Part shown: positions 2,772 to 15,154 of the stretch, in pieces
Layout of the letters: every line of letters starts with the position of its first letter
How positions within the stretch are numbered: the stretch's first letter is position 1
Assembly (NCBI GenBank): GCA_020403045.1
Contig: JADBYK010000025.1
Coordinates: forward strand, 71,136-135,135
Length of the DNA: 64,000 nucleotides
Origin: Cytophagales bacterium
GTDB lineage: Bacteria > Bacteroidota > Bacteroidia > Cytophagales > Cyclobacteriaceae
Direction: 5' to 3'
Program-made: the position numbers and the translations under genes
Notes under the pieces: model-generated
What the model saw: only the letters and a program-made list of their open reading frames with translations
What the model was told of the DNA's origin: nothing
The model's database searches: none

Positions 2772-2873
2772 AACGTGTCCATTTTTTACAAATAAATGGA
2801 CACGTTGTCTTGTCAATCTCTATTTTTGAGCGCATTTTCGTATCATGTTCAGGTTTACAACAAATATGAACAT
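2772..2873. promoter_or_regulatory. Two inverted-repeat operators (RTGTYCA-N15-TGRACAY) flanking a TAnnTTTG -7 element upstream of fic
   Basis: AACGTGTCCATTT (2772-2784) / AAATGGACACGTT (2794-2806) is a perfect 13-bp inverted repeat. ATGTTCA (2845-2851) / TGAACAT (2867-2873) is a second. TATTTTTG lies at 2821-2828. Confidence 0.6.
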
Positions 2874-2879
2874 ATAAAT

Positions 2880-3995
2880 ATGGAAGCTTTTGACCGAAAC
2901 CAACCTTTTAACCAGCTTCCATTACTTCCACCTGGCATCCAGTTAGAAAATGATCCGCAAATACTTAAAAAGTTAGTAAGCGCTTCGCGGGCTTTGGCGA
3001 TGGTGAATAGCAACGTGCTTCGTTTGCCTAACCCATTGATGCTGGTAAACACCATTGCCTTGCAAGAAGCCAAAACATCAACCGCCATTGAAAACATTTT
3101 TACAACCGAAGACGAACTCTACAAAGCAATTTCTGATACTACCAAAGAGGCACGGGCTAACGTGGCTACCAAAGAAGTGCTTAAGTACAGCGAGGCACTT
3201 TGGAATGGTTACAACCAATTGCTAAGTGCTAACGAAATAAATCTTGAATTACTCATCTCCATTTTTCAAAAAATCAAAAGTACAAATGCGGGGATAAGGC
3301 CACCACAGGCGCAGGTGGTTATCAAAAGAGGTGAAAGCGAATTCAGACCTGGCGAAGTTGTTTACACACCTCCGCGGGGTGAGCAACTCCTGCTTACCTT
3401 ACTCAACAACCTGAAGCAATACCTCAACGATGATGTGAATGACACCACCGATCCACTAATCAAAATGTGTGTAGCCCATTATCAGTTCGAAGCGATACAT
3501 CCTTTTCAGGATGGCAATGGAAGGACGGGGCGCATTATGAATTTACTTTATCTCATTGACAAGGGCTTACTCGCTAAGCCGGTATTATACCTGTCGAAAT
3601 ACATTATTCAACACAAAGAAGATTACTATTACAAGCTGGGTGCCGTGACTACCCGAGGTGAATGGACACCATGGGTTTTATATATGCTCGATGCCGTGGA
3701 AAAAACATCGGTGCTCACCAACTCATTGATCAACGATATTGTACAGCAAATGGGCGCCACTCTCGAACATGGCAAGTCGAAAATCAAGTGGTATAACAGA
3801 GAAGTAAACGAGGCTATCTTCAGCCAACCCTATTGCCGATTTAAAACAATCGGCCAGGCAATGCAAACCACCTCACGCACTACATTAACGAAATACATGA
3901 GCGAGTTAGAAAAGGCTAAAATATTGACACCAAAAAAAGATGGCAAAGAAGTCTATTATGTGAATGATGACTTGGTGCGGATTTTGGAAGGGTGA
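2880..3995 (+). CDS. Fic family protein (class II, likely AMPylase) with C-terminal HTH-like region
   Basis: Catalytic motif HPFQDGNGRTGR and N-terminal inhibitory motif STAIEN. ATG 2880 (MEAFDRNQPF) preferred over 2796. Confidence 0.93.
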   Translation: MEAFDRNQPFNQLPLLPPGIQLENDPQILKKLVSASRALAMVNSNVLRLPNPLMLVNTIALQEAKTSTAIENIFTTEDELYKAISDTTKEARANVATKEVLKYSEALWNGYNQLLSANEINLELLISIFQKIKSTNAGIRPPQAQVVIKRGESEFRPGEVVYTPPRGEQLLLTLLNNLKQYLNDDVNDTTDPLIKMCVAHYQFEAIHPFQDGNGRTGRIMNLLYLIDKGLLAKPVLYLSKYIIQHKEDYYYKLGAVTTRGEWTPWVLYMLDAVEKTSVLTNSLINDIVQQMGATLEHGKSKIKWYNREVNEAIFSQPYCRFKTIGQAMQTTSRTTLTKYMSELEKAKILTPKKDGKEVYYVNDDLVRILEG

Positions 3996-4106: not shown

Positions 4107-4555
4107 CTATTCAGATTGCTATTCCGCCCGCAAGGGGAGCGCAAACTACCATTAGCAAGGGCATTCTCACGATAAACTACAAGGGTGTTGTTTTCTCAGG
4201 CAACGAAACGTTCAAAATTCGCGCCTGCGATCTGCCGGCTAACTGTCCAAAACAAAAGTTTACTATAGAAGTAGCCGGTCAGATTCTGGTGTATAACGCT
4301 GTATCGCCCAATGGCGATGGCAAAAACGAATTTTTGGCTTTGCAATTCATCAAATCGATATCGCCAAACAGCCAAGTGAGCATCTACAACCGATGGGGCG
4401 ATGAGGTGTTTTCCATTTCGGATTATGATAATAAAACACGCGTGTTTGCCGGACTTACCTCGGGAGGAAACAAAATTTCCAGCGGCACCTACTTCTATAA
4501 AATCGTACCGGCCGATGCCGGCAAAACCTTGACGGGCTTTATTTCATTAAAGTAG
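4073..4555 (+). pseudogene. 5'-truncated T9SS type-B cargo (last Ig-like domain plus CHU_C CTD only)
   Basis: Frame is open from 4073 with no ATG or signal peptide: ...ILTINYKGVVFSGNETFKIRACD...IEVAGQILVYNAVSPNGDGKNEF...IYNRWG...GTYFY. Colinear with the C-terminus of 7542..10961. Confidence 0.85.
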
Positions 4556-4651
4556 TAACGGCTATGAATGCCAAAAAACAGTCTTGAAATGGATTCGCTC
4601 TCAAATGATCATGTGATTTCAAGAGGGCGGACGATAAGCGATATTTGGAAT

Positions 4652-5053
4652 ATGAAACTATCCATCGCTACCCTGTTGGTGTTACTAAGTCTTTCCGCGA
4701 AAGCGCAGCAAGACCCGCTCTATTCGCAATACCTCAACAACCCATTTGTGCTCAATCCGGCCTATGCCGGCCTTACCAACAACCTTAATTTTTCGTTGGG
4801 CTATCGCAGCCAATGGGCAGGCTTTGAAGGCAGCCCGAAGACCATCAATTTCAACTCGCACATTTCCCCCCACGACAATAAGATGGGTGCGGGGCTAATG
4901 GTTATCTCGGACCAAATCGGGAACAGCACCATCAATGAAATATTTGGGAGCTATAGCTACCGCATCAATCTAACGGATAGCAAAATTTTGTCTTTCGGTT
5001 TGCAGGCCGGCATTGCCAACTACCAACTAGATAATTCAAAAGTAAATACGTAA
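4652..5053 (+). pseudogene. 3'-truncated PorP/SprF family T9SS membrane protein (133 aa versus ~300)
   Basis: MKLSIATLL...AQQDPLYSQYLNNPFVLNPAYAG is nearly identical to the N-terminus of the intact 10958..11869 copy. Stops at DNSKVNT*. Confidence 0.88.
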
Positions 5054-6419: not shown

Positions 6420-7541
6420 ATGAAAAAAGTCTTCTTCTTAGTGGTAGGATTGATAGCAACCATCAGTGCCTTCTCAACCGTGCGCACGGTGAGCAGCAAC
6501 CCGGCAACCATCGGTCAGTTTACTACAATACAAGCTGCCATTGATGCCAGTGCCGATAGTGACACAGTGTATGTATATGGCAGCCCCAACAGCTATGCCA
6601 TTTTCACAATTCAAGATAAAAAGATAACGGTAATTGGCCCTGGCTGGAGCCCGGATAAAAATCTTCCACTTACGGCAACAGTTGACGGAGCCATCTTTCG
6701 AAATTCTCCAGCCGGAGGAAGCCCGGATGGTTCTGAACTTCAAGGCCTTATTTTTAATTCCAACGTTCGTGCCTCAGCTTTGAATGTGGGCGGTGATATT
6801 GGTGTCAATAATGTTCGACTCATAAGATGTCAATTTAATTTTCCGGTTACATGGGATTTGGCATCAAGTGGTTTTTTGATGGAAGGGTGTATTTTCTATA
6901 ATACGTTAAACTTTTCTGGTAGTCTTACCTATCAGAATTTTCTCTTTCAAAACAACTACTTCTACTTTTCGATTGGCTTCATCAGCACACAGATCAATTC
7001 ACTTACCAATAGTGTAAACGTACGATTCGACCACAATCTTTTCACGAGCAACAATAATAGTGGTGGTGGAACCGCCTCCGTATTCTTTTCCAGCCGCTTC
7101 CTTACTTTTTCCAATAACATTTTCAATCAAGCCAATGTGGGGAATAACGTCAGCTTCAGCACCTTCACTAATAACATTACTAATAACATTACTTTAAATT
7201 CTTCCAATGCAACTTCGAACGCTACCCCCTGGGCAATAAATAGCAACGTAGATGGCGGAGGCAACTTGGCCAACACAAGTCCCGGAATGGTGGATCAAAC
7301 AACCATCAACAACGGAAACTCATCTCCGAATCTAAACTTCACAATCGCCAGTGGGGCTGCCAATAATTCGGGTAGCGATGGCAAAGACATGGGGTTGCTC
7401 TTTGATGCTACCGGAAGTTTAAACTGGACCAACAGCCGTAACAGCCGCGTGCCACGCATCTTCAGCATGAACATCACCACACCTACCGTAACACCCGGGG
7501 GAAATCTAAGTGTGACGGTGGATGCACGGAAGAGCAATTAA
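6420..7541 (+). CDS. Secreted Asn-rich protein, probable parallel beta-helix
   Basis: Signal peptide, then TVRTVS...FTTIQAAIDAS..DTVYV (typical start of a pectin-lyase-like beta-helix) and repeated xFxNNxF stacks. No recognisable T9SS CTD. Confidence 0.75.
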   Translation: MKKVFFLVVGLIATISAFSTVRTVSSNPATIGQFTTIQAAIDASADSDTVYVYGSPNSYAIFTIQDKKITVIGPGWSPDKNLPLTATVDGAIFRNSPAGGSPDGSELQGLIFNSNVRASALNVGGDIGVNNVRLIRCQFNFPVTWDLASSGFLMEGCIFYNTLNFSGSLTYQNFLFQNNYFYFSIGFISTQINSLTNSVNVRFDHNLFTSNNNSGGGTASVFFSSRFLTFSNNIFNQANVGNNVSFSTFTNNITNNITLNSSNATSNATPWAINSNVDGGGNLANTSPGMVDQTTINNGNSSPNLNFTIASGAANNSGSDGKDMGLLFDATGSLNWTNSRNSRVPRIFSMNITTPTVTPGGNLSVTVDARKSN

Positions 7542-10500
7542 ATGCTATCTAGTACTTCCCGTTTTGTTTGCAAACTTTGTCCAAAGTCGTCCATTGACCG
7601 TGGACTGTGGACCCTTGTACTTTTTATTTTTCTTTCCGGAACTTCTATTCCTAGTTTTTCACAGAGCGTAGTAAGGGCAGAATATTTTTTTGATACAGAT
7701 CCCGGAGCGGGCAATGGAACGCTGATTTCGTTTACACCCACGGGAGGAGATGTTACTTTCACAACGAGTATTTCTACTGCCTCGCTCAGTCAGGGTTTTC
7801 ATCAGTTAGCCATTCGCCTGAAAGAAAGCGGTGGGTTGTGGAGTCAATTTGAAGCCCGTGGGTTTTACATTACAGCCTCTACTACCGATGTTGCAAATAT
7901 TACTGCTGCCGAATATTTCTTTGACACAGATCCGGGTCAAGGAAGCGGCACCCCCATTTCGGTTACGGCAGGAGCCACAACAAATTTTACAGTAAGTATT
8001 CCCACTGCAAGTCTCGGAGCCGGGTTTCACTTTTTAGCAATCCGCACAAAAGGAGCTGATGGAAAGTGGGGGATATTTGAAGGCCGCGGATTTTACATAA
8101 CAGCATCTACCAGCGATGTTCCCAACCTGGTGGCTGCCGAATACTTTTTTGATGCCGATCCCGGTAACGGAAATGGAACCCCTATCTCCATTACCGCGGG
8201 GGCAACCTCTAATTTTTCAGTCAGTCTTCCGGCTACAGGATTACAACCTGGTTTTCACTTTTTAGCAATCCGCACAAAAGGCGCGAACGGCAAGTGGGGG
8301 ATTTTTGAAAGCCGTGGATTTTATGTGACGGGCTCAACCACGGATGCTCAAAATATTACCAAAGCAGAATATTTTTTTGATACTGATCCCGGAAACGGAA
8401 ATGGAATTTCTATTCCCATCACACCAGGCGCTACTACTAACTTTACGGCAACCATTCCCATCACTGGATTATCAACAGGCTTTCATTTTCTGGCGGTCCG
8501 TACCAAGGGTGCTGACGGCAAGTGGGGAATTTTCGAAAGCCGTGGATTTTATGTTTCGCCTATTAATGCAACCGTGGGTGATATCGTGGCTGCTGAATAT
8601 TATATTGATACCGACCCCGGAGAAGACAACGGCACCGCACTCACCGTTACACCTACTGGGCCCACCATCAATCAGATTTTTCCCATTTCGATTACAGGAG
8701 TTACAAGCGGGGCTCACAAATTAGGTTTGCGAGTGAAAGATGCAAATGGAATTTGGAGTACTGTTGAAACAACCAATTTTAGTGTGCTGGCTTGCACACC
8801 ACCATCTGCGCCAACTGCGCCAAACGCCAGTCGCTGTAATAGTGGAACGGTCTTGTTAAACGCGACTGCCGGAGCAACTGGATCACAAGTCTATAGGTGG
8901 TATGCCGATGCAAGTACATCGACAATTCTATTTACCGGGCCATCGTTCACCACACCGAGTATTTCTGTCTCTACAAATTATTTCGTTTCGGTTTTCGACC
9001 CTATTACTTTATGTGAAAGTGCCCGCACGAGTGTCACGGCAGGAGTGATCAGCATTTCGCCTCCCATTCTAAATGTAACTGGTACTGTTACTATTTGTCA
9101 AGGGAACTCGATTACGTTGATTGCTCCTGCTGGCTTTTCAACCTATTTATGGTCAACAGGAGAAACCACTCAAACCATTTCTGTGAGCACCACTGGAAGC
9201 TATACGGCAACAGTAGGAAACGGAACTTGTTCAAGTGTGCCCTCAGCTGCTGCTTCTATCTCTGTTTCAGCAAGGCCAGCTAAACCCACCATTACAATAA
9301 CTGGAAGTTTGTTATGTGCGGGGCAGTTGATAACACTACAAGGACCGAATGGATTTAATTATTCCTGGTCGAATGGTGCAACTACACAACAAATTTCTCC
9401 AACTCAAGCTGGTAGCTATAAACTTACTGTGGCTGACATCAATGGTTGTACAAGCGTTGCTTCCGATGCTGTCATTATCAATGCTCCACCTGCAAAACCT
9501 TCCATATTCGTAGTAGGTACCACAACGCTATGTCAGGGTCAATCAACTACATTGGTTGGCCCAAGTGGGTTCACATCTTATTTATGGTCTAACGGGGCTG
9601 TTACTCAACAGCTCGTTGCGAATGCCGCGGGCAGCTATACATTGCGAGTCACGGATGCCGGAGGATGCACAAGTGTTTTATCCGACCCAGTTGTGATCTC
9701 TGTTAACCCAGCACCAGCCAAACCTTCTATTACAATAACAGGAAGTTTGTTATGTGCGGGGCAATTGATCACACTAAAAGGACCGAATGGATTTACCTAC
9801 GCCTGGTCCAATGGTGCAACTACCCAACAAATCTCTCCAACTCAAGCTGGTACCTATACGCTTACAGTGGCTGACGTCAATGGCTGCGTAAGTATTGCTT
9901 CTGATGCTATTATCATCAATGCTCCACCTTCAAAACCTTCCATATTCGTAGTAGGTACTACAACGCTATGCCAAGGTCAATCAACTACCTTGGTTGGCCC
10001 AAGTGGGTTTACATCATATTTATGGTCTACCGGGGCTGCTACTCAACAACTCATTGCGAATGCCGCGGGCAGCTATACATTGCGAGTCACGGATGCAGGA
10101 GGATGTGCAAGTGTTTTATCCGATCCAGTGGTGATCTCTGTTAACCCAGCACCAGCCAAACCGATTATCAACGCAGCGGGAGCAACAACCATTTGCGTTG
10201 GGCAAACCGTTTCTCTCAGCGGTCCAGGTGGCTTTGGATATGTATGGTCAACAGGTGCAACCACACAACAAATTTCAGTTGGTCAAACGGGCAGCTACTC
10301 GCTCATTGTACGAGATGCACTGGGATGCACGAGCGCTTTATCTGATGCCATAGTGGTGACGGTTAATCCCTGCGATCCCACGGACAATACCCGCCCCCCT
10401 GTGATTCAAAATAAAACGATCACGGTTCAAGTCAACGGAAGCACCACCTTAAGCCTGGTTGAATTAATCACGGATGCAGACAATGATTTGAATTTAACCT

Positions 10501-10961
10501 CGCTCAAAATTTTTAAAGCCCCCGCGAGTGGGGCGGTGGCGGCCATAGATGGTGCCGGAGTTTTGTCTCTTAATTATACTGGAATTCAGTTTGCCGGTGA
10601 CGATATAATCACCATTGAAGTTTGCGATCAAGCTAACAACTGTAGCCGTCAAGATTTTATTATTAAAGTAGTCGGTGATATCATCGTTTACAATGCCATT
10701 TCTCCGAACGGTAATGACATGAATGAAGTATTGTTTTTAGAATATGTAACCATTTTGGAAGAGGCGAGAACAAACACAGTTAGGATATTCAATCGCTGGG
10801 GTGAAGAAGTTTACTCCGCCCAAAACTATAACAACAACACCATCGCATTCAAAGGCCTTAGCACAAATGGCGATGTATTACCGACTGGCACTTACTTCTA
10901 TCGAATAGATTTTGCAAGTGGAGTTCCCGTCAAGACCGGTTATTTTTCACTACGTAGATGA
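7542..10961 (+). CDS. Large T9SS type-B cargo: 5 AEYFFDTDPG repeats, Ig-like/SprB-like repeats, gliding motility-associated CTD
   Basis: Five 76-77 aa repeats, six CxGxxxTLxGPxGFxYxWSxGxTTQ repeats, and C-terminal YNAISPNG...IFNRWG...GTYFY. Followed by a PorP/SprF gene. Confidence 0.9.
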   Translation: MLSSTSRFVCKLCPKSSIDRGLWTLVLFIFLSGTSIPSFSQSVVRAEYFFDTDPGAGNGTLISFTPTGGDVTFTTSISTASLSQGFHQLAIRLKESGGLWSQFEARGFYITASTTDVANITAAEYFFDTDPGQGSGTPISVTAGATTNFTVSIPTASLGAGFHFLAIRTKGADGKWGIFEGRGFYITASTSDVPNLVAAEYFFDADPGNGNGTPISITAGATSNFSVSLPATGLQPGFHFLAIRTKGANGKWGIFESRGFYVTGSTTDAQNITKAEYFFDTDPGNGNGISIPITPGATTNFTATIPITGLSTGFHFLAVRTKGADGKWGIFESRGFYVSPINATVGDIVAAEYYIDTDPGEDNGTALTVTPTGPTINQIFPISITGVTSGAHKLGLRVKDANGIWSTVETTNFSVLACTPPSAPTAPNASRCNSGTVLLNATAGATGSQVYRWYADASTSTILFTGPSFTTPSISVSTNYFVSVFDPITLCESARTSVTAGVISISPPILNVTGTVTICQGNSITLIAPAGFSTYLWSTGETTQTISVSTTGSYTATVGNGTCSSVPSAAASISVSARPAKPTITITGSLLCAGQLITLQGPNGFNYSWSNGATTQQISPTQAGSYKLTVADINGCTSVASDAVIINAPPAKPSIFVVGTTTLCQGQSTTLVGPSGFTSYLWSNGAVTQQLVANAAGSYTLRVTDAGGCTSVLSDPVVISVNPAPAKPSITITGSLLCAGQLITLKGPNGFTYAWSNGATTQQISPTQAGTYTLTVADVNGCVSIASDAIIINAPPSKPSIFVVGTTTLCQGQSTTLVGPSGFTSYLWSTGAATQQLIANAAGSYTLRVTDAGGCASVLSDPVVISVNPAPAKPIINAAGATTICVGQTVSLSGPGGFGYVWSTGATTQQISVGQTGSYSLIVRDALGCTSALSDAIVVTVNPCDPTDNTRPPVIQNKTITVQVNGSTTLSLVELITDADNDLNLTSLKIFKAPASGAVAAIDGAGVLSLNYTGIQFAGDDIITIEVCDQANNCSRQDFIIKVVGDIIVYNAISPNGNDMNEVLFLEYVTILEEARTNTVRIFNRWGEEVYSAQNYNNNTIAFKGLSTNGDVLPTGTYFYRIDFASGVPVKTGYFSLRR
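7665..8800 (+). repeat. Five intragenic repeats with 228-231 nt period
   Basis: The GAA codon of EY(F/Y)(F/I)D(T/A)DPG falls at 7680, 7911, 8139, 8367 and 8595. Confidence 0.92.
9280..10155 (+). repeat. Recent 438-nt tandem duplication of a two-domain unit
   Basis: attacaataa.ggaagtttgttatgtgcgggg starts at 9291 and 9729. The copies are highly similar in nucleotide sequence. Confidence 0.9.
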
Positions 10962-11869
10962 GCAACGCCATGAGAAAGATAGTGTTCACTTTAAGTTTTG
11001 CCTCGATGTTGCTTGCTAGTTACGCCCAACAAGACCCCCTCTATTCCCAGTACCTCAACAACCCCATATTGGTAAATCCTGCCTACACGGGCATCAACAA
11101 CAAATTGAATGTAGTGGCGGGGTATCGAATGCAGTGGGCCGGCTTCGATGGAAGTCCCACTACACTTAATTTCAGTTCGCACTCTTCATTCTTTCAAAAC
11201 AAAGTAGGTGCCGGTATTATCGTTGTCCAAGACAAAATTGGGGAAACAAAAATTACACAATACAATGCTACCTATTCCTACAAGATTGAATTGAAAAAAG
11301 GAAGAACATTTTCTTTCGGCTTGCAAACCGGATTGACTAATTACCGCAACGACAACGAGCAACTTAATCCCAAACAGGCTGGCGACCCAGCCTTCGCTTT
11401 TATCAATGACTTGAAATTTAATGTTGGAGCTGGCATCATGTTAAAAAGTGAACGTTTTTTAATAGGGCTGTCCGCTCCACGATTAACAAAGGCCAGTGTA
11501 GACATGGGTGGACAAAGTATCGAAATCTACAACCAGCATTATTATTTGTTGGGTGCTTATGTCGTTTACCTCACTGATAGAATTCGGCTAAAACCTTCCG
11601 TTCTTTTGAAAGCGACCAAAGGAGCCTTATCAAGTGATTTGAACTTCAATTTGAATTTAGAAGAGAATTACACAGTTGGGATATTCACACGCAACTTTGA
11701 TACGTACGGGTTATTGGTTCAAATGAACATTAAGGACTACCGCATAGGCTATGTTTTCGAAATGCCCTCCAACAATTCCGTTGGCACCCGTTTTACATCT
11801 CATGAGTTTAGTCTGGCTCTTTCGTTGGCCGTTTTTAATTTTCATGATCGAACAAAAAGTAATTTCTAG
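10958..11869 (+). CDS. PorP/SprF family type IX secretion system membrane protein
   Basis: AQQDPLYSQYLNNP..VNPAYTG, YRMQWAGFDGSPTT and a C-terminal SHEFSL motif. ATGA overlap with the cargo gene. Confidence 0.93.
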   Translation: MSNAMRKIVFTLSFASMLLASYAQQDPLYSQYLNNPILVNPAYTGINNKLNVVAGYRMQWAGFDGSPTTLNFSSHSSFFQNKVGAGIIVVQDKIGETKITQYNATYSYKIELKKGRTFSFGLQTGLTNYRNDNEQLNPKQAGDPAFAFINDLKFNVGAGIMLKSERFLIGLSAPRLTKASVDMGGQSIEIYNQHYYLLGAYVVYLTDRIRLKPSVLLKATKGALSSDLNFNLNLEENYTVGIFTRNFDTYGLLVQMNIKDYRIGYVFEMPSNNSVGTRFTSHEFSLALSLAVFNFHDRTKSNF

Positions 11870-11998
11870 ATTACTTTATCTGCAACTGTAACGGTGCCCT
11901 AAGTTCGAAACCGTCAGGAATTAAATTACCGAGGTTATAAGAACCCTTTCCTTTTTGTCAATTTATTGCTAAATCGTATTTCAAACGATTGTAAACCT

Positions 11999-13642
11999 AT
12001 GGAAACCAGTAGCCCTCTTGCCGAATTTTGTAAATGGGAAAAGCAAATGCCCAACAACACCTTCCTCCGCCAACCCTTCAATGGCCAATGGCGAACATGG
12101 ACCTATCAACAAGCAGGTGAAGAAGCCCGCAAACTGGCAGCTGGCATAAACTCGTTAAACCTACCGCCCAAAAGCAACATAGCGATACTCTCAAAGAATT
12201 GTGCGCATTGGATTATGGCCGACTTGGCCATCATGATGACGGGGCATATTTCTGTTCCACTTTATGCCACATTAACAGCCCCATCCATTAAACAAATTCT
12301 AGAGCATAGTGGATCAGCAGCCATTATTATAGGAAAGTTAGATGATTATTCTACACAGCAGGATGGCATTCCATCCTCAATGATTCGAATAGGAATCGAG
12401 TTATATGGAATAAATGAACAGGAGTCTTGGGAAAAAATGGTAGCTGGTCATCAACCCCTTGGGCAAGTCGCCAACTGGACAAGTGATGATCTGTTGAGTA
12501 TCATGTACACATCAGGCACAACAGGCAAACCAAAAGGCGTGATGCATACCGTGGGAAATTTTGATGGCACCAAGTTGGCCATGGACGAACTGGGCGTGCC
12601 AATGCACCCAAAAGTTTTTTCCTATTTGCCGATGAGTCATATTGCAGAGCGGGTAGCGATTGAAATGTGTGGCATCTATCGGGGTGGAGAATTTTCTTTT
12701 GCTGAGTCATTGGAAACATTTCCCAAAAATCTATTTGAAACACAGCCCAGCATTTTCTTCGCAGTGCCTCGTATTTGGGCAAAGTTCCGCGAAAAGATAT
12801 TGGAGAAAATGCCTCAAAAAAAATTGAGCCGATTGCTTTCTATCCCCATCATCAGTTCGATTGTAAAAAAGAGTATTCGGAAAAAATTGGGACTGGGCGA
12901 TACCATTTACATTTTCTCGGGTGCAGCGCCCATTACTGTCGACTTGTTAAACTGGTTTCAATCCATTGGCATTACTATTCTGCAGGGCATTGGCATGACA
13001 GAAGATTGCATTGTTTCTCATTGCAATCGCCCCGGAAAAAATAAAGTTGGATCGGTGGGTCTTCCTTATTCAGGATTAAAAATAAAAATCGCGCCAGATG
13101 GCGAACTTCGATTGAAGGGGCCAACTAACATGAAAGGATATTACAAAGAGCCTGAGCTAACAGCCGAAGCTTTTGATGAAGAAGGTTATTTGAAAACGGG
13201 TGACAAAGGTGAAATTGATGCCAACGGCTACTTAACAATCGTGGGTCGGGTGAAAGATCAGTTCAAGACAGATAAAGGAAAGTATGTATCACCCTCTCCG
13301 ATCGAGATGAAGTTATTGACTAACCCAGACATTGAACAAGTCTGTGTAGTGGGTATGGGTATACCGCAACCATTGGCTTTGACTGTTTTATCGGCAGCCG
13401 GAAAAGCAAAGTCAAAGCAAGATCTAACACAAAGTTTAGCAGCTTCATTGGTAGACGTAAATGCTGGGCTAGAATCTTATGAGAAACTAGAGAAAGCCGT
13501 AGTGATGCAAGGTGAATGGACCATTCCCAATGGATTGATGACGCCAACGATGAAAGTGAAACGAAACGAAGTAGAAAAAATACACGTGCCAAAATACCCC
13601 ACTTGGTATCATGCTAAAGAGGGGACGGTGATTTGGGAGTAG
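11999..13642 (+). CDS. AMP-binding long-chain fatty acid-CoA ligase
   Basis: Adenylation motifs YTSGTTGKPKG, GIGMTE and YLKTGDKG. ATG 11999 preferred. Confidence 0.9.
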   Translation: METSSPLAEFCKWEKQMPNNTFLRQPFNGQWRTWTYQQAGEEARKLAAGINSLNLPPKSNIAILSKNCAHWIMADLAIMMTGHISVPLYATLTAPSIKQILEHSGSAAIIIGKLDDYSTQQDGIPSSMIRIGIELYGINEQESWEKMVAGHQPLGQVANWTSDDLLSIMYTSGTTGKPKGVMHTVGNFDGTKLAMDELGVPMHPKVFSYLPMSHIAERVAIEMCGIYRGGEFSFAESLETFPKNLFETQPSIFFAVPRIWAKFREKILEKMPQKKLSRLLSIPIISSIVKKSIRKKLGLGDTIYIFSGAAPITVDLLNWFQSIGITILQGIGMTEDCIVSHCNRPGKNKVGSVGLPYSGLKIKIAPDGELRLKGPTNMKGYYKEPELTAEAFDEEGYLKTGDKGEIDANGYLTIVGRVKDQFKTDKGKYVSPSPIEMKLLTNPDIEQVCVVGMGIPQPLALTVLSAAGKAKSKQDLTQSLAASLVDVNAGLESYEKLEKAVVMQGEWTIPNGLMTPTMKVKRNEVEKIHVPKYPTWYHAKEGTVIWE

Positions 13643-13735: not shown

Positions 13736-14578
13736 TCATTTCAATCTTGCCTTAAAAAATGCCAGCGTATTTTTATACGCGTCTGTCGCCATTTCTTTGT
13801 TGTGCTTGGGATTGCTTGGATTCGCAAAGGCGTGATCAGCTTCATAGGATTTCACCGTCAAATTTTTACCGGCTGCTTTCATGTTGGCTTCAAATTTTTC
13901 AGTCAATTCTTTGTTAATCCACTTGTCTTGAGTAGGCCAAATGTCCAATACATCACAATTCAAGGTTTTCAGACGATCAATATTGTCTTCAGGTTGACCG
14001 TAGTAGATAACACATGCTGCCGCTTGTGTTCCTGCGATCAAACTCGCTTGCATAGATTGACCTCCACCGAAGCACCAACCAATCGTTCCCACTTTTGCAG
14101 CAGGTCCGGCAAGTGCTAATGCACCCTTGACGATTTCGGCACCACGTTCTTTTTTAAACTCTTGCATGTACTTGCCGGCTGACTGTGGGTCTGTCGCCAA
14201 TTTACCATCGTACATATCTAGTGCAATGACGTTCACATTGCCTAAGTCATTGAACAAGTTATCAGCTTCACGCTTAATGTGATCATTTAAACCCCACCAT
14301 TCTTGAAATACAAAAACCCAATTATTCGTCTTTGATTTTGCATCGATCAAATAGGCATTTGCCTCTACGCCATCAGCACATTTTATCTTAATCATCTTTC
14401 CTCCTGCCTGGCTTTCGTGCAAATAGGGCAGCGGACTGGGATGATCGCGATTGAATTTTTTGTTGGAGGCAAACACGGCAAACTTATCAGTGGCGGATGT
14501 GTGACACACGGTTACGTCTTTCTGCGCGAAAGCAGAAGCTGAAGCGATCAGAGAGGCAAAGAAAAATAGTTTTCTCAT
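13736..14578 (-). CDS. Dienelactone hydrolase family protein (secreted)
   Basis: QEWWGLN, nucleophile elbow GWCFGG and HAFANP. Signal peptide. Confidence 0.92.
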   Translation of the reverse strand: MRKLFFFASLIASASAFAQKDVTVCHTSATDKFAVFASNKKFNRDHPSPLPYLHESQAGGKMIKIKCADGVEANAYLIDAKSKTNNWVFVFQEWWGLNDHIKREADNLFNDLGNVNVIALDMYDGKLATDPQSAGKYMQEFKKERGAEIVKGALALAGPAAKVGTIGWCFGGGQSMQASLIAGTQAAACVIYYGQPEDNIDRLKTLNCDVLDIWPTQDKWINKELTEKFEANMKAAGKNLTVKSYEADHAFANPSNPKHNKEMATDAYKNTLAFFKARLK

Positions 14579-14636: not shown

Positions 14637-15107
14637 TCACTCTTTCCATTGACCCCGCACCACCCGATCATAGGTGATTAAGTCGGTGTTGATGGGCTCG
14701 AATCCCTGTTGCCGAAGTAACAAGGCTACCTGTGCCCGATGATAAGAGCAATGATTGACAAGGTGCATCATAATAATTTCTACGTTATTAGTGTAGGAAT
14801 CTCCGGTATAGTTCGTGTAAGTCAACTCCCGGTCAAAGGTTTCATTGCCTTCGACAAAATCAAGCCATTGTTGGTTGGCATCCATCGCCATCTTTTCTAA
14901 CGTATCAACCGAATACTCTCCCCATAATTTTACGTTGGGGGGCGTAAGTCCTTTGATCCGATGCAACCACAGAAATTGAGCCGCTAGCACATGTCCAAAA
15001 ATGGATAGAATTTTTTCATCCTTTACATCTTCACGCTTCAGTCTGGTTACTACTTGTTCATTGGCCCAAGCGTTGAATTGATACAGTTTTAAAAAATATT
15101 TTTTCAT
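14637..15107 (-). CDS. DinB family protein
   Basis: FNAWAN, H...AQ..W and MHLVNHCSYHRAQ. ATG 15107. Confidence 0.88.
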   Translation of the reverse strand: MKKYFLKLYQFNAWANEQVVTRLKREDVKDEKILSIFGHVLAAQFLWLHRIKGLTPPNVKLWGEYSVDTLEKMAMDANQQWLDFVEGNETFDRELTYTNYTGDSYTNNVEIIMMHLVNHCSYHRAQVALLLRQQGFEPINTDLITYDRVVRGQWKE

Positions 15108-15124
15108 GGTTGGTTTAAAAACAG

Positions 15125-15154
15125 AAAGGGAAAGCAAGTTACTTGCTTTCCTTT
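15125..15154 (-). terminator. Intrinsic terminator
   Basis: GGAAAGCAAG-TAA-CTTGCTTTCC hairpin followed by a T-rich run on the minus strand. Confidence 0.7.

Follow-up and report, generated by a model that had tools for sequence, protein, structure and literature searches.

Type IX secretion system (T9SS) cargo is currently recognised by a C-terminal domain (CTD) on the same polypeptide, and the locus described here raises the question of how a secreted protein without such a domain is related to the T9SS substrate encoded directly behind it. The locus lies in a 64,000-nucleotide (nt) stretch of the genome of a freshwater Cytophagales bacterium (contig JADBYK010000025.1; this whole stretch is called the window below), in which three tightly packed genes on the + strand, P1, P2 and P3, span 6420-11869 according to the list of open reading frames (ORFs). 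A first-pass annotation described P1 as a protein of 373 amino acids (aa) with a signal peptide, no T9SS CTD and a beta-rich C-terminal tail, and P2 as five AEYFFDTDPG modules (DTDPG modules below) followed by an immunoglobulin (Ig)-like stalk and a type B CTD, with a PorP/SprF gene behind it. This description agreed with the ORFs, with Pfam and NCBIfam profiles and with AlphaFold2 (AF2) models, the modules measuring 76-78 aa. The functional unit extends to 11869, and with the end set by that annotation (8800) about the last 25 nt of module 5 are cut off. Our evidence is computational throughout, consisting of sequence, gene context and AF2 models. It is almost certain that P1 and the DTDPG array belong together in a single surface assembly. 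As the genes lie side by side in every case and are fused in some relatives, docking of the head on the stalk and its export together with the stalk are probable, and the reading that we favor with some confidence is a split head-on-stalk surface protein, in which P1 would dock by a C-terminal hairpin on one or more DTDPG modules and would be exported in trans by way of the CTD of P2.

P1 matched nothing in Pfam or NCBIfam at E <= 0.01, nor did ten diverse members of its family at E <= 1, and it was therefore considered to lack a T9SS CTD of either type A or type B; its 30-aa tail is also too short for a seven-strand CTD. By its sequence, P2 is T9SS cargo with a type B CTD, and P3 is its cognate partner. 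The CTD of P2 matched PF13585 (E = 1.6e-19, 70.2 bits vs a cut-off of 27) and scored 33.2 bits against TIGR04131, slightly below the cut-off of 35. P3 is a full-length PorP/SprF protein (PF11751, E = 3e-65, profile positions 2-272 of 273; TIGR03519, 231.6 bits vs a cut-off of 90.55), and such a gene stands in the same position, adjacent to the carrier, in most Cytophagales loci.

Whether DTDPG genes consistently follow a P1-type gene, which the first-pass annotation had named as a check of its proposal, was answered in the affirmative from both sides. When one genome per species was scanned for P1 relatives, 55 loci were obtained, two of which (L040 and L051) lie at contig ends and were left out; a DTDPG gene was found directly downstream and on the same strand in 53 of the 53 loci holding downstream DNA. 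Distant P1 paralogs with 25-35% identity (L028, L030, L038, L039, L041 and L048) were each accompanied by a DTDPG gene of their own. For the reverse survey, metagenome contigs were scanned by the module motif EY[FY][FI]DxDPG alone, giving 80 loci, and P1 was called by a length-filtered hidden Markov model (HMM) of P1. The HMM pass placed P1 upstream in 68 cases and in a fusion in 4, with 5 unassessable loci and 4 seemingly without P1; three of these last four had a P1-like gene directly upstream that was hidden by naive ORF extension, and the fourth was a frameshift fragment at a contig end. Altogether, all the 76 assessable loci carried a P1-like gene either directly upstream (72) or fused in frame (4). 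The pairing of P1 and P2 looks obligate in both directions.

The linkage follows the DTDPG modules and not the type of CTD or the rest of P2. It holds with a type A CTD and without a PorP gene in Chitinophagaceae (L053 and L054) and in the cultured flavobacterium Geojedonia litorea (L142, GCA_042654525.1), where a 338-aa head ending in ...LNVTFTAEKKN is followed after 27 nt by a 330-aa protein in which a signal peptide and three modules precede a type A CTD. In relatives of P2 the first module begins at a median of aa 37; in three P2 proteins (L101:2863-7641, L125:4777-8481 and L133:1543-12231) the modules are internal, starting at aa 1046, 328 and 1170, respectively, and a P1-like gene is still found directly upstream, so that docking cannot need a free N-terminal module. 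The scaffold-and-cargo proposal of the first-pass annotation is partly supported, namely in its pairing of head and modules, by the obligate linkage and, as described below, by fusions running from the tail into module 1, by the conserved tail and by the AF2 models, whereas the connection to a type B CTD and PorP is incidental because the same pair occurs with a type A CTD and without PorP.

Single-chain proteins containing both head and module were found in three divergent clades. In the first (L090/L093/P0241, L109, P0242 and L122/P0248), the junction reads ...GGNLGINFKAQGK-MAKGVLT-AEYFFDTDPG... and leads into 5-6 modules, then SprB repeats, with a type A CTD at the end; the proteins are 1469 aa (L090/L093) and 1558 aa (L109) long, and P0241 and P0242 are NCBI fragments annotated as 'SprB repeat-containing protein'. 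The second clade (P0361, P0381 and P0398; junction ...LGITVKARRFD-SSPIYT-AEYFYDVDPG...) and the third (P0477; junction ...ANIEAEHSENIVA-IEYFVDDDTG...) have a single module, then PKD or SprB repeats and again a type A CTD, the type in which all the fusions end. The point of joining is constant in all three clades, namely the tail, 6-8 residues and module 1, with no internal signal peptide. Fusions number about 4 among the best 150 representatives of the P1 family. No standalone P1 was found at the P0361, P0398 and P0477 loci. In L090, L093 and L109, the fused gene is preceded, at a distance of about 100 nt upstream, by a standalone P1 whose signal peptide and tail are both intact; these loci (L090:1164-6757, L093:3080-8673 and L109:2905-8691) hold two heads, the fused gene itself having a P1 domain and 5-6 modules.

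As Rosetta-stone evidence, the natural fusions indicate that head and modules belong to one physical assembly. In the organisms that bear them, the head is covalently joined to a CTD-bearing chain and must therefore leave the cell through the T9SS, placed distally at the N-terminus of a stalk, and from this we infer the co-export of the separate P1 through the T9SS. The fusions show a ratio of head to stalk of at least 1:1, and those with a single module speak for a unit in which each module has one head.

When 17 homologs of P1 were aligned, conservation was highest over the final 30 residues, and this tail is the best candidate for the docking element. Most of its positions hold a single amino acid, while 2-9 codons are used per position (57 distinct nucleotide versions); because synonymous codons vary so freely, the constraint acts at the protein level, and the alternatives that the tail is kept as an RNA or DNA element or for translational coupling were ruled out. 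In distant P1 proteins the body falls to 25-30% identity and the C-terminal pattern P.I..h....G..L.V.h.A[KR].N is retained; in 127 of 136 proteins the profile of the family runs exactly up to the final residue. Some genomes (L028, L030, L038, L039, L041 and L048) carry two or three tandem paralogous cassettes of P1, DTDPG gene and, in part, PorP, with clearly different tails, for example ...PIPQVTEMNISNTTIQPGTSLNVNVKARVNN vs ...PRIFSMNITNPTVTPGGNLNVTVDARKSN. This difference hints that the pairing of tail and module may be cognate-specific among paralogous cassettes.

Two AF2 models, both of covalent chains, were used to examine the contact, one of the natural fusion P0241 (84-row alignment, mean predicted local distance difference test (pLDDT) 79) and the other of a window chimera joining P1 to mature P2 aa 42-432 (66 rows, mean pLDDT 78.8). 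In both, the P1 body is a helix-free stack of about 25 short strands with pLDDT above 90, a fold that no profile matched; it covers residues 23 to about 300 in P0241 (pLDDT 90-97) and appears in the chimera as many short strands from E21 to E255 with pLDDT mostly 85-95. The tail of P0241 forms strands 314-320 and 329-337, and its module 1 forms strands 344-351, 361-363, 371-379, 385-395 and 404-411; pLDDT stays at 78-86 without a break from the beta-helix through the tail into module 1 and falls below 50 only in four inter-module linkers. The long beta3 strand (371-379), which adjoins tail strand 329-337, is present in module 1 only; modules 2-5 have long strands for beta1, beta4 and beta5 only, and their beta3 region is not assigned as strand by DSSP. 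The chimera gave a similar pattern, with tail strands 346-352 and 362-370, the latter beside beta3 of module 1 (beta1 375-382, beta3 403-410, beta4 417-427 and beta5 432-442 in chimera numbering), no beta3 strand in modules 2-5, and the segment from beta2 to beta3 as the least confident part of modules 2-4. A flexible hinge of low confidence (330-335) lies between beta-helix and tail. We infer from these models a pairing of the tail hairpin with a module's beta3 edge, by which a five-strand module would become a seven-strand Ig-like sandwich.

Several observations weigh against this reading. The contact of tail and beta3 was deduced from DSSP and pLDDT patterns in covalently linked models, and pLDDT of the tail in the chimera was only 52-67. 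Modules 2-5 were modelled confidently without a tail and may therefore be complete, stable domains. The mutual information of tail columns with module columns did not rise above noise (116 pairs, effective number of sequences 77), module 1 scoring no better than module 2, module 3 or the final module, and the extreme invariance of the tail is unmatched by any module of P2. When the AF2 models were searched by Foldseek, the fold of the head was not retrieved and the output was dominated by Ig modules. We also found no report in the literature of piggyback or hitchhiker export by the T9SS, whether of CTD-less cargo or of a hetero-complex.

In the favored split head-on-stalk arrangement, P1, P2 and P3 would form one cell-surface structure of two secreted chains and an outer-membrane partner. 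P2 would be the carrier and stalk, whose type B CTD would be recognised by the T9SS after Sec export and held by P3; a carrier or scaffold role fits the many relatives of P2 that consist of DTDPG modules and a CTD alone. P1, as the distal head, would reach the periplasm by its own signal peptide and dock with its C-terminal hairpin on one of the DTDPG modules near the N-terminus of P2, where it would add two strands beside the beta3 segment to complete the Ig-like sandwich, as the AF2 models suggest. Because it is docked on P2, P1 would be carried through the T9SS translocon in trans and displayed on the stalk, in line with its single-chain relatives. The pair may be the split version, or the ancestor, of a single chain with the order signal peptide, beta-helix, tail, module(s), stalk and CTD. 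Each stalk would bear one head or more, since additional heads may be held by the extra modules. A broader claim, to which we give slightly less than an even chance, is that the T9SS exports a non-covalent hetero-complex in which a CTD-less beta-helix hitchhikes by hairpin insertion, possibly with several heads per carrier, and that the minimal carriers made of docking modules and CTD form a dedicated 'CTD in trans' adaptor family across Bacteroidota.

The full model of the first-pass annotation went further in proposing that every module binds one tail, so that a stalk would display up to five heads. It agrees with the number of modules in complete split P2 proteins, which was 2-7 in 97 of 97 and never one, with the minimal P2 proteins that are modules and CTD only, and with the nearly equal conservation of modules 1-4 (mean column identity 0.73-0.76, vs 0.64 for module 5), which have their invariant residues in common. 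The segment between beta2 and beta3, without a long strand in modules 2-5 of both AF2 models, would suit further tails, and the standalone, tail-bearing P1 that L090, L093 and L109 retain beside a gene with the head in cis points the same way. Nevertheless, nearly all loci hold one P1 gene per P2, fusions of the L090 type have one head for 5-6 modules, P0361, P0381, P0398 and P0477 combine one head with one module, and the extra modules may be mere spacers; we therefore regard the occupation of every module as rather unlikely. A different role for the hairpin would be that of a PapD-like donor, with P1 acting on the DTDPG modules in the periplasm, as their chaperone or as an assembly factor, and being released before or at translocation without being displayed. 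The obligate, tightly coupled gene pair would be explained by this, as would the presence of a Sec signal with no known outer-membrane route; however, a beta-solenoid of 330 aa would be unusual as a chaperone, and in the three fusion clades the head must be exported, because it is covalently part of a CTD-bearing T9SS substrate. We consider a chaperone improbable.

Operon partners need not bind each other, and beta-helix proteins are often polysaccharide lyases or hydrolases, so that P1 could also be a secreted or periplasmic carbohydrate-active enzyme and P2 a substrate-binding adhesin of the same pathway, with no stable complex between them. This would leave the invariant C-terminal hairpin and the constant point of fusion unexplained. 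In addition, P1 matched no enzyme family in Pfam or the PDB, and the near-invariant positions in the family alignment are Asn, Gly and the cap motif, with no catalytic-looking residue conserved; for this reason ligand binding or adhesion by the P1 head is more likely than enzymatic activity, and the enzyme explanation seems to us a little less probable still than the chaperone. Finally, the stop codon of P1 (TAA, 7539-7541) abuts the ATG of P2 (7542) in the same frame, as would be seen if one gene were split by an in-frame stop or read through it. This artefact was ruled out by the separate signal peptide of P2, and a pseudogene or read-through was also rejected because more than 130 loci keep the split, while the spacing ranges from -4 to about +300 nt and the frames differ; identical sequence, moreover, occurs in many independent freshwater metagenomes (DNA of the locus in 20 runs, with 88-100% of the sampled words), and the exact P1 protein was found on contigs of 35 collection blocks, including NCBI GCA_020403125.1. 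An artefact has hardly any probability left.

Chaperone-usher pili and the type V pili of Bacteroidota (FimA/Mfa1, which donate C-terminal strands) are assembled by donor-strand complementation or exchange. The proposed docking of P1 on P2 would be similar in that C-terminal beta-strands complete the Ig-like sandwich of another chain. It differs in the lack of sequence relationship, polymerisation, lipoprotein precursor and protease step, and in that a two-strand hairpin would be donated and the partner is a T9SS substrate. Cohesin-dockerin scaffoldins likewise have an anchored scaffold bearing modules in tandem, and a separately encoded subunit that ends in a short docking element; however, P1 and P2 had no Pfam match to cohesin (PF00963) or dockerin (PF00404), and the tail of P1 is a beta structure of 30 aa, unlike the Ca-binding F-hand pair of dockerin. 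Hitchhiker co-export of signal-less partners occurs in the twin-arginine translocation (Tat) and type II secretion (T2SS) systems. As proposed for P1, a signal-less protein crosses the membrane bound to a signal-bearing partner through a system for folded proteins; for the T9SS, no such case was found in the literature, and P1 would be a candidate. The T9SS is also a transporter of folded proteins (PMC9251779), and proteins with a type B CTD require a cognate PorP-like protein and remain attached to it (PMC9143113, PMC12618676). SprB/SprF and other pairs of Flavobacterium johnsoniae, and PG1035/PorP of P. gingivalis, share with P2/P3 the signal peptide, the long Ig-like repeats, the type B CTD and the adjacent PorP/SprF gene (PMC12618676, PMC9143113), but SprB/SprF and PG1035/PorP have not been described with a CTD-less head subunit upstream, and the partner of P1 here is the DTDPG array.

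If P1 is indeed exported bound to P2, cargo lists drawn up by searching for CTDs miss a whole class of surface proteins, and the P1 family alone would account for thousands of clusters at 50% identity. The T9SS would then join Tat and T2SS as a mover of hetero-oligomers, and in the P1 tail and its DTDPG module one would have a docking pair based on a beta-hairpin, small and portable, perhaps useful for surface display in Bacteroidota. Geojedonia litorea, a cultured host with the minimal pair, is where the idea is testable. Two widespread domain families, both of them uncharacterised and represented by no model in Pfam or NCBIfam, are also defined here; a literature search for the motif FDTDPG or for either family found no paper.

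The P1 family comprises 3314 clusters at 50% identity when a profile from 40 diverse members is used at E <= 1e-30. By direct search, 814 homologs were detectable, and the 120 listed are standalone proteins of about 370-390 aa with 70-99% identity; the sources among the matches listed are metagenome-assembled genomes of Cyclobacteriaceae, Cytophagales, Chryseolinea and Ohtaekwangia. Conservation across the family falls on the Asn ladder (NN/N), on glycines and on a ..GTDGTDIG.YGG.. cap motif. No relative was obtained in a PDB sequence search with P1, and no Pfam beta-helix model matched the family; a right-handed parallel beta-helix (pectin-lyase fold) is a candidate for the body in view of the AF2 strands and the Asn ladder. 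The alignment of P1 is invariant from T20 onward, and the AF2 chimera gives a helix at 2-16, where the signal peptide was read.

The DTDPG module family gave more than 1400 matches, and this number together with the 3314 P1 clusters indicates that the repeats did not arise by chance. Most of the module matches listed are proteins of about 574 aa with modules and PF18962 (type A CTD). In P2 the modules cover aa 46-428 (nt 7677-8825), each starting with AEY[FY][FI]D[TA]DPG, and motifs of the YFFDTDPG type lie at aa 48, 125, 201, 277 and 353. A consensus of 17 diverse modules has E2, D8, P9, G10, H41 and R46 invariant and D6, G12, G39 and W54 nearly so, and the acidic D.DPG loop with the His is a possible metal- or ligand-binding site. 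The modules of the window had no significant match in Pfam; some module relatives pass the cut-offs of Y_Y_Y (PF07495) or GbpA_D3 by summed weak matches, with no single stretch doing so. Foldseek searches of the PDB with both AF2 models returned tandem Ig/FN3 stalks (6xi3, SiiE, GbpA and the T9SS protein GhpA) at low TM-score. From these hits and the summed weak matches the module is probably a divergent E-set/Ig-like domain, one for which neither Pfam nor NCBIfam has a specific model. Its C-terminal half (G.H.L.IR.KD..G.WS) resembles the Y_Y_Y and GbpA_D3 E-set domains, unlike the AEYFFDTDPGxGNG half, which is specific to the family.

Behind the modules, the stalk of P2 matched PF19081 (E = 8e-22) and PF17963 (E = 1e-5), and repeats containing Cys are visible in the translation. 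The Sec signal peptide of P2, judged by eye, has a basic n-region and an h-region at aa ~22-42. P2 and P3 overlap by 4 nt. Positions of the features are given in Table 1.

Table 1. Features of the P1/P2/P3 locus, in positions of the window.
Feature	Position	Strand	Basis
P1, 373-aa CTD-less 'head' protein, predicted beta-solenoid	6420..7541 (stop codon included)	+	ORF
P1 Sec signal peptide, aa 1-19, mature start ~TVRTVSS	6420..6476	+	read from sequence
P1 predicted beta-solenoid body, aa ~21-330, with Asn ladder and C-terminal GSDGKDMG cap motif	6480..7409	+	
P1 tail RVPRIFSMNITTPTVTPGGNLSVTVDARKSN, two-strand beta-hairpin, proposed docking element	7446..7538	+	conservation and AF2
P2, 1139-aa stalk/carrier, T9SS type B CTD cargo	7542..10961	+	ORF and Pfam domains
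P2 signal peptide region, aa 1-42, h-region LWTLVLFIFLSG, then SFS/QS	7542..7667	+	read from sequence
DTDPG module 1, aa 46-122, adjoins tail in AF2 chimera	7677..7907	+	
DTDPG module 2, aa 123-198	7908..8135	+	motif and AF2 chimera
DTDPG module 3, aa 199-274	8136..8363	+	motif and AF2 chimera
DTDPG module 4, aa 275-350	8364..8591	+	motif and AF2 chimera
DTDPG module 5, aa 351-428, most divergent	8592..8825	+	motif and conservation
Ig-like stalk: Ig_7 (aa 421-502), repeated Cys-containing Ig-like units, Big_9 (aa 952-1039)	8802..10658	+	
Type B T9SS CTD (CHU_C, aa 1047-1135)	10680..10946	+	PF13585
P3, PorP/SprF-family outer-membrane protein, cognate partner of type B CTD	10958..11869	+	PF11751, TIGR03519

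One metatranscriptome contig (7181-7577) covered the junction of P1 and P2. It lends weak support to co-transcription, because depth was low and carry-over of DNA is possible. In metatranscriptome run X25, one RNA-derived contig joins opposite strands (8136/8234) between modules 3 and 4; the most likely cause is misassembly, the repeat units there being nearly identical.

Upstream of P1, an 88-aa fragment of CHU_C (type B CTD) at 4289-4555 is followed at 4568-5053 by the N-terminal 161 aa of a PorP/SprF protein, and the two look like remnants of a second adhesin/PorP pair. That pair is intact in L001 and L046, where a protein of 1503-1777 aa and a PorP of 332-335 aa lie about 3 kb upstream of P1; the truncated arrangement is also present in the independent assemblies L136-L138. 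Directly upstream of the CTD fragment, 2796-3995 encodes a Fic-domain protein (HPFQDGNGRTGR motif; Pfam Fic_N/Fic/SoFic-like_C), which may be a trace of whatever event cut the adjacent adhesin gene short. Downstream of P3, motif inspection pointed to an AMP-dependent (long-chain fatty acid) CoA ligase-like ORF (11966-13642) and, on the - strand, to a dienelactone-hydrolase-like secreted protein (13736-14578) and a DinB-family protein (14637-15137); these genes look unrelated to the P1/P2/P3 system.

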